Positions 2,277 through 6,994 of a stretch of DNA of 64,000 nt are shown here, piece by piece. Source of the stretch: an uncultured Planctomycetota bacterium (GTDB taxonomy: Bacteria > Planctomycetota > Planctomycetia > Isosphaerales > Isosphaeraceae); assembly GCA_963823665.1 (NCBI GenBank), contig CAWGMQ010000008.1:672001-736000 (forward strand). The letters run 5' to 3'. Both the position numbers and the translations under genes were made by a program. The first letter of the stretch is position 1, and each line of letters starts with the position of its first letter. Under the pieces are notes generated by a model. It made no database searches and was not told the DNA's origin. It saw only the letters and a list, made by a program, of their open reading frames with translations.

Positions 2277-3648
2277 GTCCTGTCGATCGGCCGTTCGGCC
2301 AGGAACGAGAACGAGTTGTTCCCCGAATTACCCGTTATTGGGGTTCATCTCAGCGGTTCCCACACCGCCCGCCGGCGCGCGCACGCACGGCTCCTATCTA
2401 GATGATCTACAAAACCCCCGATCCATTTGCGCCGAAGATGTGGAATTCGTCCATTTCGAGCGAGATTTCTCCGTCCCGGTCCTCCATCATCGGTGCTCCG
2501 CTTTCGGTCGTCCGCCCTCCGTCAGCCGTTCCCCCGCTCGGGTTCGTTCGCGAATTCCAGCCACGTTGTCAAGTCACCGTTCATGGGTGTTTTCGTGATC
2601 GAACCTTCACTCCAATTCCAAGTTACGCAGTTCCAGCCACCTGAGCTGTCTTGGGTTCGTTCGTCACATTTTGCGACTCACGGGATTGGCGTTTCTCTCG
2701 CAGCCGCACCTGAACTGCAGCGCCGATTCTCATCTCGCGAGGGCGAACGCGGCGCAACGCCGCTGCCGCGACCATTGCGTTCACCGCCGACGTGCACCCT
2801 GTCGAATCCCGATCCGGGTATCGTGTCATATTCTCTTCCCTCGTTCGTGAGATTCGTAAGATTCGTGGTTCGACGTCCCCCCGCCATGTCACACGGCAGC
2901 CTGGCCACGCTTCGCACGCTCCAAATAAGTAGGAGTGAATGGAACTAGATGGAACTAAACGGGACTCCTGGCCCCAAAAAAATCTCATTTTGCTTGCGGA
3001 CTTGAACCCCGTCCGATCGCTGGCCGGCCCCCCCTGAATCCGTACGGAAATGCTGAGTTCCAAAGAGGATAACGCCACCAGTCCCAATCCATGATCCCTC
3101 GGGCCAACGGGTGAAAACTCATCCTCCCGTGGTCCAGACCCGTCCCACGCGCGGCACAGCTCAAAATTCGGGTGGATTTCGCCGCGTACCGATCCCCCTT
3201 TACAAGCGCAGGCCGGCCCCATTTTCCCGATTGCACAGGCGTGGTCAGGCCGAGTTGAGATCCTCGAGCACGCGCTCGAGCAAACGGAGCAGTCATTCCC
3301 GGTTCCAGAGACATGGGTGGCTCGCCCCTCGCGCCGACTCCGGTGTCGGCGATCGAGACTGAGCTACTTATATTATGGACCCACTTTCGCGATTTGGCCA
3401 TTTCGTCGACCAGAAAACCTGGGATTTTTATCCGGCTTGTAATGGATACAACGACCAACTCGATCGAAACCCAATAAGGATTTGAGTTCGCGAAGCCGAA
3501 TCTCAAATCCCGGTTCAAGAAGCCCGTTGAGCGCACCCCGCAACCTGCTGTTAGGGAAACGGTTCGACACGAGAATGGGTGATCGAGGGTCAACGGAGGG
3601 AACCGAGAGGATCGCGCCGGGTCGCCTTGGGGGATCGCTCCCCCAAGG

Positions 3649-6068
3649 GCCGGGTAAGGAGGTGACGTTACCGCCACCCCCTCCCCTCAGAACTGCACGT
3701 GAAAGTTTCCCTTCATGCAGCTCAAGCCTTCACGAACGCCCCTCGCAGGACGCGGCCGCTTTCGTCAGTCGTTCTTGGACATGGATCTGCCGATGACAGT
3801 TGGCATGCAACAACTCCAGGTTGTCGGCTGTGCCAGAACCGCCCCGGCTGCGCCAGATGCGATGGTGGAGATGCAAGTCTTCCTCTGCGATCCGCAGCGG
3901 TTGACCACAGACCACGCATCGTCCCTCTTGTTCCTTCCATAAGTATTCGATCCGACCCCGACCTGCCAGCGTTTGGCTCAGTTGCCAACCCAGTCGTGCT
4001 TCCAGGTACAGTTCCCACTTCGGATCGTAGGGATTCACGTCGCTCCGGATCTTCACATAACGAATGATCTTCACTTTGGCTGCTTCCATCAACTGGATCG
4101 GCCGGCCTTGGCCTTTCTGGTCAAACAGCGTACCGGTGAAGACCCAGTGGCGGTAACCGTCTTGCTGGAAGTATTTCTCCTTGATCCACCTCCGGCCTTT
4201 GTTCTGGTGCCGTCGTCGACACCAACGCCACAATTTCTGGAAAATCCGGTGATCCACGTACGTAAAAGTGCGCTTGCTCGCCGCGTAACGGTGGTACATG
4301 GTCCAGCCCTTGATCTGCTGATTCAAACGCCAGATCATCTCTCCTGCCGTTAGGCTGCCCGAGCCGTCGATCGTTTCCTGTATCTTGTTCAAGAACGTCT
4401 TCACGTTTCGCAAGGACGGCTTGGTGAACACCTTGCCGCAGCGATAGCGTCGCACATTCTGCCCCAAGAAATCGAAGCCATCCTCCACATGCGTGATCTG
4501 GGTTTTCTCGTGGGAAAGTTCCAAGCCGCGTTCCTTCAAGAAATGAGCCACGAGAGGTTGCACTTGGTCACGGAGGAGTTCCTTTGAGATGCCCGTGATC
4601 AAGAAGTCATCCGCATAGCGGACCAGGTGGACTTTAAACTTCCGTTGTCGCCCGTGCTTCTCGGCGAACTGTTCCGCCAACAGCCGTTGCAGTCCATCCA
4701 GAGTCCAATTCGCCAGGACGGGTGAAATGATCCCGCCTTGAGGTGTTCCTTCCGTGGTGGCGAACCAGGCGTGCTTCTCCAGGAAACCCACTTTCAGCCA
4801 TTGCCCGAGCAACTGCCGGTCCATGGGGACGTGCGTCAAGAGCCAGTCATGACTGATGCGATCAAAGCAAGCTTTGATGTCCCCTTCGAGAATCCATGCT
4901 GGACCGCTCCGATTACCCAAGACAATATGAGATTGTTCCAGGGCGTCGGCACAACGACGTTCCAGCCGAAAGCCATAGGAATGGCCGTCGGCTCGAGATT
5001 CCGCAATGGGATCGAGGCCTAGCAAGTATAATGCCTGCATGGCTCGATCTGACATGGTGGGAATTCCGAGAGGACGTCGCTTGCCGTTGCTTTTGGGAAT
5101 GTACACCCGGCGGAGCGGTTGCGGTTGGTAACCGTGCCGACGCAGAGTGCTGAAAGCAGCCGACTTGGCTTCCGGTGTGTTCCAGAGAACTCCGTCCACA
5201 CCGGGAGTCTTCGCACCCGAATTACTGATGACTCGCAAAATGGCCAGGGCCCGGCCACTGAACGAGTGCGTGAGCAGATAAACCAGAGCCTTGACCTTAT
5301 TCCATCTGCCCTCCGCAACAGCCTTCACGATACGCGCCTGGAGCCGACGGACTGTGCGCCAGACTTTCTTCCATTCGATGGAGTGCCAGTCGGGCGTAAG
5401 CTCGGGAGCCGCACCAGCAAGCATTTCTGCCGCCGACATATCTGCTTGTCTCCCTGAGTCGGTTGGCCAAGGTTCTCTCGTGACGGAACACCTGAGGGAA
5501 GTCGGCACCGCTTTCGCGGTGAGGGGATGTCGTCCGTGGGAGGACTCACCCTCTATCCGATCGACTACCGAACGGCATTGGCTTGCTCCCTCATCCTCCA
5601 CCCGCCGCCCCATCGGCGACGCCTTACGACGGTCCTACCCCGAAGGGAGGGCGACGGGCTTACCACGTTCCACGGATGAATCACGGATGGTTTAGGCTCT
5701 GCCTCTCCGCCGGTGGCTCGGATGACGACGACAGGGGATGGGAAATCCCACTGTACCTGGCCACGTACCTTTTTGGTTCAAGCCTCTCAGCGCCTTTGGC
5801 TTGTTGGATCTCACGACGTTTATCGGCAGTTCACCTGGATTAGCCATGCCATCCACCCCTGGCCCCCGACCGCATTGGCGTTCGCAGTCGCCGGATTCCC
5901 TCACGGGATATCCAACCACCCGAAGGTGAGGTTACGTTGTCCCAAGAGCTTCGCACGGTCGGATTGCTCCGGCCGCACGTCCTGGTAGGGTTCCGGTGGT
6001 CGTACATCGGGTTATGTCCTGGTTGCAAATCCAGTCATAACAGACTCATCCGCAGCTTCGTTTCGCGA
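3649..6068 (-). mobile_element. Inner group II intron (chloroplast-like CL/IIB class), full length, 2420 nt
   Basis: 5' end TCGCGAAACGAAGCTGCGGATGAGTCTGTTATGA (CL-type). DV GAGCTGCATGAAGGGAAACTTTCACGTGCAGTTC at 3723-3690. DVI ends CCTTACCCGGC at 3649. EBS1 TTCCCA (5744-5739) and EBS2 AGATCC (5811-5806) match the 5' flank. Confidence 0.92.
3730..5439 (-). CDS. ltrA: Group II intron reverse transcriptase/maturase with C-terminal HNH endonuclease
   Basis: N-terminal WHSIEW...[11 protein letters not shown], then [33 protein letters not shown], the maturase X domain, and an HNH domain (CVVC...HLHH...[15 protein letters not shown]). ATG 5439 follows a GGAG RBS. Confidence 0.97.
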
Positions 6069-6994
6069 TTCCCACAGATCCGGACGTGTCCCATTAAGGC
6101 ATCCGGCTCGTCATGTCGCGGAGTCGCTGTCCCTCTCACGATCTGGCTGCCTTACGGGCACACGCTCTGAGGTCCAATGCCCTCGGCGTGGTTCCGGCGT
6201 CCAGTCCACGACACGGTACCCCCTTCGCTCCACAGGGTCTGGGAGGGCCCATTCCCCCGCTTCACTGCTACTACGGAGCACTCCGACTCCCGTCCGCCCA
6301 TTTCGCCGCACTTCGTTGCCTTCGTTTGGCGATACCACCCTTGCGTCTTGTTCGCTCCCAGCGACCCGACGCGGGGTCGTGGGCCGGGGAGTTGGTATTC
6401 CGGTTCCCGAGCCGGAAATGTCAGTGGAGACGGATGGGGCTCTCAGGTTCCCGAGCAACCCTCGCGTCCCTGCGCCATGTTCTTGGACCCCGGCAGGACC
6501 GAACACGCCAGGCCATTGCGGCGCGTCGACACAGCCCCCGCTTGTGTCTACAACGGAGGCTCCCACGATGAGTATTTCGGGGCTCGATAGCATGGCATGG
6601 AGACTCGCTGTCTACGCTTCGCAATGAGGGTCACCCCTCCCCACGCAAGACTTGCTTCCGGCTGCCGGCCAGGCTCTGCCGGGCGGGATTCGTTAACCCG
6701 CAGGGTCGCGATGAAAGGTTTCTGTGTTTCGAGGCACTTCCTCCTTTCTCGAGCTTTTCCTGACGCAAGGACACCCACCGATCAGCAACCGAAATTCCGA
6801 GGCGCTGACTCACGGCAACGACGTAGGCATCGAACATCATGAACTTCACTTGAGAAATCGTATACGACCTCTCCGTAGACCCATCTGCGATCGCCCACCG
6901 GGCGTGCCAGCTCCCCATCGGGGTGAACTCAACCAAAGCCGTCTGGCCGTCGACCAGCGCATCCATCCCGGCCGGCACGTAAGAAAGACCTCGT

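Follow-up and report, generated by a model that had tools for sequence, protein, structure and literature searches.

A group II intron of Planctomycetota that probably homes to the domain V/VI junction of a second group II intron family

The stretch of DNA analyzed here, referred to below as the window, covers 64,000 nucleotides (nt) of an uncultured planctomycete from the family Isosphaeraceae (GenBank assembly GCA_963823665.1, contig CAWGMQ010000008.1, positions 672,001 to 736,000 of the forward strand). On its minus strand, positions 6768 to 3616 are taken up by two nested group II introns that together contain three Rfam elements. The core of domains I to IV of the outer intron was matched by RF02005 (6692 to 6478; 135.8 bits), the domain I core of the inner intron by a different family, RF02012 (6011 to 5862; 105.5 bits versus a gathering score of 34), and one canonical pair of domains V and VI (DV and DVI) by the full RF00029 model (3725 to 3649; 63.4 bits versus a gathering score of 40). 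A first-pass annotation of the window had proposed that the exon-binding sites (EBS) of the inner intron match DV and DVI of the outer one, i.e., that this is an intron that parasitizes introns, and the present report follows up on that proposal.

The boundaries of both introns could be read from the genome to which the window belongs. When positions 6120 to 3600 were used as a query against these 16.5 Mb, many places matched the first 51 bases of the query and then, one base later, its last ~40 bases. In such empty sites, ...GGATC(A/T)GTGGGAG is directly followed by CC(C/T)TGG..., so that 6069 is joined to 3648, while filled sites carry TCGCGAAACG......CCTTACCCGGC between ...GGATCTGTGGGA(A/G) and CCTTGG.... 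Since a filled site equals an empty site plus the insert under one reading only, the inner intron extends exactly from 6068 to 3649 (2420 nt). The same comparison places the end of its 5' exon at 6069, upholding the position assumed in the first-pass annotation, and shows the inner intron to lie wholly within the outer intron (hereafter, the host), precise empty copies of which are present.

The inner intron encodes a protein of 569 residues (5439 to 3730), free of in-frame stops, in which RVT_N, RVT_1, GIIM, and HNH all scored above the Pfam cutoffs. Among solved structures, the best match of this reverse transcriptase (RT) was the TeI4h protein (chain 6me0_C; E 7e-181), and we take 6me0 to be the Thermosynechococcus elongatus TeI4h particle. 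Introns of the TeI4 group have been termed CL/IIB1-like (Mohr 2010, PMC2882425; here and below, sources cited by PMC number are represented by the portions of their text that were accessible). In the RF00029 alignment, DV and DVI of the inner intron are canonical, with a bulged A at 3655. Taken together, these features point to a mobile group II intron of the chloroplast-like IIB kind, for which splicing and mobility are predicted from its sequence.

The host copy in the window is a gene-less intron of 733 nt (6768 to 6069 plus 3648 to 3616, minus strand) that is 96 to 98% identical, over ~710 nt (window positions 6780 to 6070), to 13 empty copies of what we call type A. Type A represents a 733-nt derivative without the gene, and type B the full intron of 2011 nt, which encodes an RT of 434 residues with a Pfam match to RVT_1 and none to HNH or GIIM; the hosts at loci L006 and L007 make up a third, diverged type. 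Host copies start with UUGCG, after the conserved 5' exon ...GGTGGGTGTCT, and end with ...GACCCGGC; the homology that they share begins ~10 nt upstream of 6768, and their RF02005 scores range from 135.8 to 138.4 bits. The host's own EBS1, AGACAC, pairs with the 5' exon GUGUCU at six of six positions in the other copies and at five of six in the window. The copy in the window looks worn: the last base of its 5' exon (6769) is a C instead of the T found elsewhere, which mismatches host EBS1, and its DV contains two substitutions in the upper helix (6088 to 6093).

An empty host copy could be aligned with RF00029 over the full length of the model, ending at GACCCGGC, but its score, 33.3 bits, fell short of the gathering score (40). 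On the basis of this alignment, intron-binding site 2 (IBS2) of the inner intron comprises the five bases with which the host DV 3' arm ends and one base of the DV-DVI linker, and IBS1 is the basal 5' strand of DVI. The first-pass annotation had thus been right in naming DV/DVI as the target, although the exact insertion point is inside DVI, six bases into its 5' strand; likewise, its placement of IBS2 in the 3' arm of host DV holds for five of the six bases and not for the sixth. The host DV itself is unusual in that the G.U found at one place in most group II introns is replaced by a G.A mismatch. All host DVs seen (window 6077 to 6109, L097 5952 to 5984, and metagenome loci L137 to L160) end in GGAUC and not in GGUUC, so that the catalytic-triad G (or A) faces an A. 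Because this host-specific A lies within IBS2, the DVs of ordinary group II introns would mismatch EBS2. The earlier description of the target as a different intron class could be assessed at the level of protein and ribozyme family, and there it is borne out: the host RT lacks HNH and is 34% identical to the inner one over 228 aligned residues, and domains I to IV of the two introns fall into different Rfam families.

As to target recognition, the minus strand reads as proposed at EBS1, IBS1, EBS2, and IBS2 (Table 1), and both EBS1/IBS1 and EBS2/IBS2 consist of six Watson-Crick pairs out of six. To place these elements independently of the window's own target, domain I of the window intron was aligned with that of 26 relatives from other genomes, and the columns were read against the 5' flank of each intron. 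At the EBS1 columns, at least five of six positions paired in 16 of 19 nonredundant introns, compared to 24 of 340 mismatched intron/flank combinations; for the EBS2 columns, the corresponding numbers were 14 of 19 and 20 of 336. A consensus fold of 24 distinct sequences (RNAalifold) placed EBS1 in a hairpin loop, on a stem with compensatory changes, and EBS2 in an unpaired stretch, as in a published description of a IIB intron (PMC4649490). The EBS thus lie where comparative structure and covariation place them, and the first-pass annotation, which a fold with the EBS outside the loops of domain I would have contradicted, is upheld in this respect. The first-pass annotation had located EBS1 at the tip of a stem, and this hairpin is indeed found, except that A5739 is a base of the loop and not of the stem.

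Local folding contributes little here. RNAfold, applied to the isolated 41 nt, favored another hairpin, in which EBS1 is paired with the UGGGA of its own stem, and neither the isolated EBS1 hairpin (z-score, -1.4) nor the EBS2 region (z-score, 0.1) gave support for structure, so that the support for structure comes from the comparison with relatives. The 5' strand of the EBS1 hairpin, GUGGGA (5745 to 5750), is identical to the stretch of target that immediately precedes the insertion, and pairing with EBS1 in cis is possible.

Additionally, a scan of all alignment columns identified G5705, which is absent from the first-pass annotation, as EBS3, its column being complementary to the first base of the 3' exon in 20 of 22 introns (next best column, 12 of 22). 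Once the pair G5705-C3648 is counted, all 13 of 13 target positions are matched by the window intron. For the 12 Watson-Crick pairs of EBS1 and EBS2, at positions fixed by homology, the probability of a chance match is ~6e-8. Filled copies of type B have TGGGAG at IBS1, resulting in a G.U pair at position -1. Hairpin targeting in the style of IIC introns was ruled out for the inner intron by the covarying EBS2 and the endonuclease domain.

Table 1. Features of the nested introns in the window
Feature	Position	Strand	Basis or remark
Host IBS1, last 6 nt of host 5' exon	6769..6774	-	GTGTCC here, GTGTCT in other copies; pairs with host EBS1
5' segment of the gene-less host (outer) group II intron, from the 5' end TTGCG through domain V and 6 nt into DVI	6069..6768	-	
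Host EBS1 AGACAC, hairpin loop of host domain I	6544..6549	-	Loop in RF02005 alignment
Host domain V	6077..6109	-	RF00029 alignment of empty copy; comparison of copies
Inner-intron IBS2 GGATCT	6076..6081	-	6/6 pairs with EBS2; covariation
Inner-intron IBS1 TGGGAA, 5' strand of host DVI base	6069..6074	-	6/6 pairs with EBS1
Inner group II intron, 2420 nt, 5' UCGCG, 3' ...UUACCCGGC	3649..6068	-	Filled versus empty host copies
Inner-intron domain I core	5862..6011	-	RF02012, 105.5 bits
EBS2 AGATCC	5806..5811	-	Covariation with flank -13..-8; unpaired in consensus fold
EBS1 TTCCCA, hairpin loop	5739..5744	-	Covariation with flank -6..-1; consensus hairpin
EBS3 G	5705	-	Column complementary to first 3'-exon base
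Intron-encoded protein gene, 569 residues	3730..5439	-	Pfam RVT_N, RVT_1, GIIM, HNH; open frame
Inner DV (3723-3690) and DVI, bulged A at 3655	3649..3725	-	RF00029, 63.4 bits; fold z-score -6.6
IBS3 C, first base past inner intron	3648	-	Pairs with G5705
Host 3' segment: distal DVI hairpin, likely branch A 3622, 3' end ...GACCCGGC	3616..3648	-	Contiguous with 6069 in empty copies

Within its own genome, the inner intron is present in at least seven full copies, identical to each other over all 2420 nt, and all seven of those listed are found at the same position of a host intron (at most 40 candidates were scored per search, making all genome censuses lower bounds). A 217-nt 3' fragment also adjoins host sequence at this position. 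With the seven full copies spread over hosts of three diverged types, the earlier view that the site is a cognate homing site, and not an ectopic one, has held up well, as has the view of it as a multicopy landing site, given at least 22 copies of host DV-DVI in the genome; that it would also be a low-cost one seems plausible. The 217-nt fragment (L103 1907 to 2270; contig C8 of this genome, G000, ~1395900 to 1396270) lies beside an intron of another Rfam family, RF02003, on the opposite strand.

The 5' parts of the type B hosts differ mutually at 2 to 10 of ~700 columns, whereas alignments between the three host types are poor, with hundreds of differing columns. The presence of identical inner copies in three such diverged host types implies separate, recent insertions, and by this sequence comparison at least four of them would be needed: one each for type B, the window, L006, and L007. 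Among the matches listed, four of six type B hosts, one of 14 type A hosts, and both hosts of the third type were occupied. All 13 listed empty type A copies have an A at position -8, which yields an A.A mismatch with EBS2, and the only listed filled copy of this type, that of the window, has a T. One perfect type B target remains empty (contig C7, locus L097).

Regarding the host family itself, the type B RT gene was found to be frameshifted in three of four occupied hosts and intact in both empty hosts and in one occupied host (L002/L098, L003, L004, L005, L024, and L097), all of these being small numbers. Host introns also occur head to tail (L015/L016, at ~1458535 to 1460050 of contig C10; L020; L007, 725 to 836). 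Two 733-nt copies are spaced at 757 nt, the 24-nt spacer between them repeating the target ...GGTGGGTGTCT, further copies sit 20 to 60 nt behind the 3' end of another host intron, and a GC-rich palindrome precedes the host target in several copies. Finally, the seven flanking reading frames that were translated had no Pfam match at an E value of 0.01 or better.

The junction between the two introns was also found outside this genome, namely, in five other genomes of the family and on 24 metagenome contigs. A query composed of host DV and inner domain I was matched in 29 of 121 genomes of the same family, and host DV alone was matched in 11 further ones. From this 121-genome search, seven 5' ends could be read: three are located at the host junction (L105 of genome G061, L106 of G005, and L122 of G087), two in rearranged, host-derived sequence (L108 and L119), and two (L107 and L117) not in host sequence. 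L107 has a different EBS1 and a different EBS2, both of which fit its own flank. In G061, all four scored matches extend into the host-DV part of the query. Two of its introns (L134 and L135) reside in two different host variants and have the canonical ends GUGCG...GAC; with ~75% nucleotide identity over intron positions 1 to ~1620 and 59% identity in the RT, they carry an EBS2 (AGAUCC) and an EBS1 (CUCCCA) that perfectly match ...GGATCTGTGGGAG. The search of genome contigs added L031 (98% RT identity), situated at the junction as well, and host DVI follows the 3' ends of the introns at L057, L088, and L078.

The first-pass annotation would have been contradicted by close relatives with the same EBS that mostly reside in nonintron targets. 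Instead, L031, the G061 introns (L105, L134, and L135), L106, and the metagenome contigs all proved to be in host DV/DVI. Relatives with 81 to 89% RT identity and other EBS occupy nonintron sites, with flanks (for example, ...CATTGC, ...ATTCGG, and ...TTGGCC) that match those EBS. The 5' flanks of relatives, for which a check had been called for, thus covary with their own EBS1 and EBS2, and these comparisons show that specificity is kept in diverged relatives from other genomes. Among the 24 metagenome contigs, we distinguished by eye at least eight versions of host DV, with 11 contigs sharing one host; since this search used the junction pattern as its query, it finds the junction by construction and reflects breadth rather than frequency. 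An independent soil-metagenome contig (X3 record 30) has the junction in a type B host.

Two loci deserve separate mention. First, a third intron, with an RF01999 domain I and its own RT and DV/DVI, is present at L057 (1389 to 5150). Its left flank is formed by the host RT up to residue 277 and its right flank by an inner-type RT from residue 276, a joint such as would result from recombination between two copies of an intron that homes into the RT genes of other introns, at the stretch coding for YADD. Second, at L046, an intron with another target, nearly the same 24-nt sequence (GGAAGTCAGTCAATTATC(C/T)TGACC) is found on both sides, from which it follows that the target site is tandemly repeated there.

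When relatives were compared along the length of the intron, two patterns of identity to the window intron were seen. The G061 intron is 81 to 88% identical over positions 1 to 400 (domains I to III) and 55 to 66% identical in the protein gene, whereas L032-like introns, which have other targets, are 50 to 71% identical over positions 1 to 400 and 81 to 90% identical in the protein gene. By these values, two lineages have contributed to the inner intron, a mosaic in which target specificity follows the ribozyme part.

In summary, we consider it very probable that the inner element is a mobile, endonuclease-bearing IIB intron whose cognate homing site is the DV/DVI junction of a second group II intron family, with an RT that lacks the endonuclease. 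Its RNA, together with the protein, would enter DNA copies of the host intron by reverse splicing, after which HNH would nick the opposite strand and the RT would copy the intron in by target-primed reverse transcription. Always inserted in the orientation of the host, the inner intron would be transcribed together with it, and because the insertion breaks host DVI, it would have to be spliced out first, rebuilding DVI, before the host could splice. Being multicopy and presumably mobile itself, the host family would keep supplying new landing sites outside cellular genes.

Several observations weigh against this interpretation. To begin with, the termini of the inner intron, UCGCG...GC, depart from the consensus GUGYG...AY, and the C at intron position 2 was found only in the copies of this genome. 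Relatives have homologous 3' ends (...ACCCG(A/G)C) and start with (G/U)UGCGA. A BLAST search with the first 149 nt of the intron located the 5' end in one close relative only (L031), the others being placed by their distance from the RT start. The termini covary: introns with U as their first base have G as the penultimate one (UUGCG...GGC; 14 loci), and those that begin with G have A there (GUGCG...GAC; 12 loci), with no exceptions in the 26 loci for which both ends were read (manual tally of L031 to L081, L134, and L135, plus window positions 6068/3650). What we see in the window therefore looks like a covarying variant and not like decay. For comparison, UUGCG..GU ends have been published for one intron (PMC7923331), and the host family, too, has UUGCG...GGC ends.

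Furthermore, when contigs of two DNA and two RNA soil runs were compared with window positions 3400 to 6900, no contig bridged 6069 and 3648 or the two host exons, a result to be read in light of the fact that contigs cannot show absence. Two small joints, with sides of <30 nt, were disregarded, and the contigs of the RNA libraries, which are 95 to 99% alike and may derive from DNA or from relatives, cannot be taken as evidence for or against expression. The identity of the seven copies could, in part, reflect consensus polishing of a metagenome-style assembly. Lastly, the 33 host nt after the insertion are, both in the window and at L006, the type B version, while the rest of the host is not type B. 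Such a switch of flank is not predicted by simple target-primed reverse transcription and suggests that, in some events, DNA-level repair or recombination copied the flank of the donor.

This last observation leads to the most serious alternative, i.e., that the inner intron spreads mainly at the DNA level, by homologous recombination or double-strand-break repair templated by a filled copy and carrying host flank along. Besides the 33-nt segment, set apart from its type A counterpart by four paired hairpin changes, the window's type B base at position -8 and the recombination joint between intron copies at L057 speak in its favor. L007, however, retains its own version of the 3' segment, the window keeps type A bases upstream of -8, and the homology available on the right-hand side amounts to only 33 nt. 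Moreover, 13 matching EBS/IBS pairs would not have been preserved through 25% nucleotide divergence by recombination alone. We therefore regard spread mainly by this route as unlikely, although recombination may well contribute after endonuclease cutting.

Still less probable, in our view, is that the inner intron is a mere passenger, without homing of its own, of a composite twintron or of a host that moved or was duplicated as a unit. Some of the type B twintrons could indeed be composite copies, as one and the same frameshift, near residue 378, is found in the host RTs of L002 and L003, with 2 of 701 host columns differing between them, and L004 and L005 differ at 3 of 701; composite mobility was also named as one possible route by Mohr et al. 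(PMC2882425). Yet a passenger would hardly account for identical inner copies in three poorly aligning host types, with the four or more insertions that these require, for the existence of empty copies of types A and B (none of the third type was found in this genome among the matches listed), or for the EBS/IBS match kept by relatives in other genomes with other hosts. That a chance or ectopic insertion was fitted post hoc with an EBS/IBS match can be practically dismissed: a short complement could be found somewhere in a domain I of 600 nt, and nothing further speaks for it, whereas the EBS positions were set by homology and covariation independently of this target and the same site is used by seven of seven copies and in several other genomes.

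Going beyond homing as such, we tentatively suggest a broader scenario, which we hold to be possible rather than probable. A long-lived IIB lineage of soil Planctomycetota might have become an obligate hyperparasite of the endonuclease-less family, reading the DV/DVI core, including the family-specific A in DV, and holding the host ribozyme inactive until it is itself spliced out. Its module of domains I to III would have been swapped between RT lineages by recombination, so that specificity would move with the ribozyme rather than the protein.

The nested introns point to parasitism one level up, in which one mobile intron has the catalytic core of another as its niche, a niche kept across genomes and in many soil samples. 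They provide a natural setting in which to test whether a host's splicing and mobility are gated by the intron inside it, and natural target variants for EBS2 recognition (A or T at -8) are available, along with A or G at -1. In addition, the ribozyme and the protein of one intron have different histories here, contrary to the usual picture of joint evolution. Since nested introns are commonly discarded by annotation pipelines (PMC4028801 and PMC8919778), lineages of this kind are probably undercounted.

Introns nested within introns are known from several systems, and homing into another mobile intron has been published for Thermosynechococcus and Methanosarcina. In Euglena gracilis, the inner intron of the psbF twintron (Copertino and Hallick 1991, via PMC8393795) similarly interrupts the catalytic 3' end of the outer one (domain V) and must leave first. 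That case concerns, however, a single organellar locus in a protein gene and a site inside domain V, whereas ours concerns a multicopy bacterial lineage, inserted six bases into DVI, in which the target-recognition loops have been retained. The twintron of Trichodesmium erythraeum is bacterial, like ours, and consists of two RT-encoding IIB introns (Pfreundt and Hess 2015, PMC4649490), for which sequential splicing was demonstrated; there, the inner intron is located in domain I of the host, at one locus, and the accessible text describes no family-wide homing specificity. In Methanosarcina, nests have been explained by repeated site-specific homing, which provides a perpetual homing site (review, PMC4424553). 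The copies of Methanosarcina acetivorans (Dai and Zimmerly 2003, via PMC4424553 and PMC2882425) were reported to be lost by recombination, to which the joint at L057 is comparable; going by the cited title, homing in that organism is into the open reading frames (ORFs) of related introns, with up to five nested levels, as opposed to the DV/DVI junction and the two levels of the window.

A further parallel is provided by the T. elongatus twintrons, in which ORF-less TeI3 (F3) introns lie inside TeI4 (F1) introns (Mohr, Ghanem, and Lambowitz 2010, PMC2882425). In both systems, a group II intron appears to have evolved to enter a conserved site of another mobile group II intron, and identical inner copies are found in diverged outer ones, the same argument as that used by Mohr et al. 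The inner and outer introns of T. elongatus are, however, close relatives, and the inner one is gene-less, while the intron described here has its own RT and endonuclease and a host of another lineage. The site differs as well, lying in T. elongatus between the first two ATGs of the outer ORF, in domain IV, and here in the ribozyme core, at DV/DVI. Within the literature covered, to which most subscription papers and supplements do not belong, we found no bacterial lineage described as homing to DV/DVI. Thus, the principle of intron-in-intron homing was already known, and what is new here is the landing site, the specialization on a different intron family, and the mosaic nature of the inner intron.

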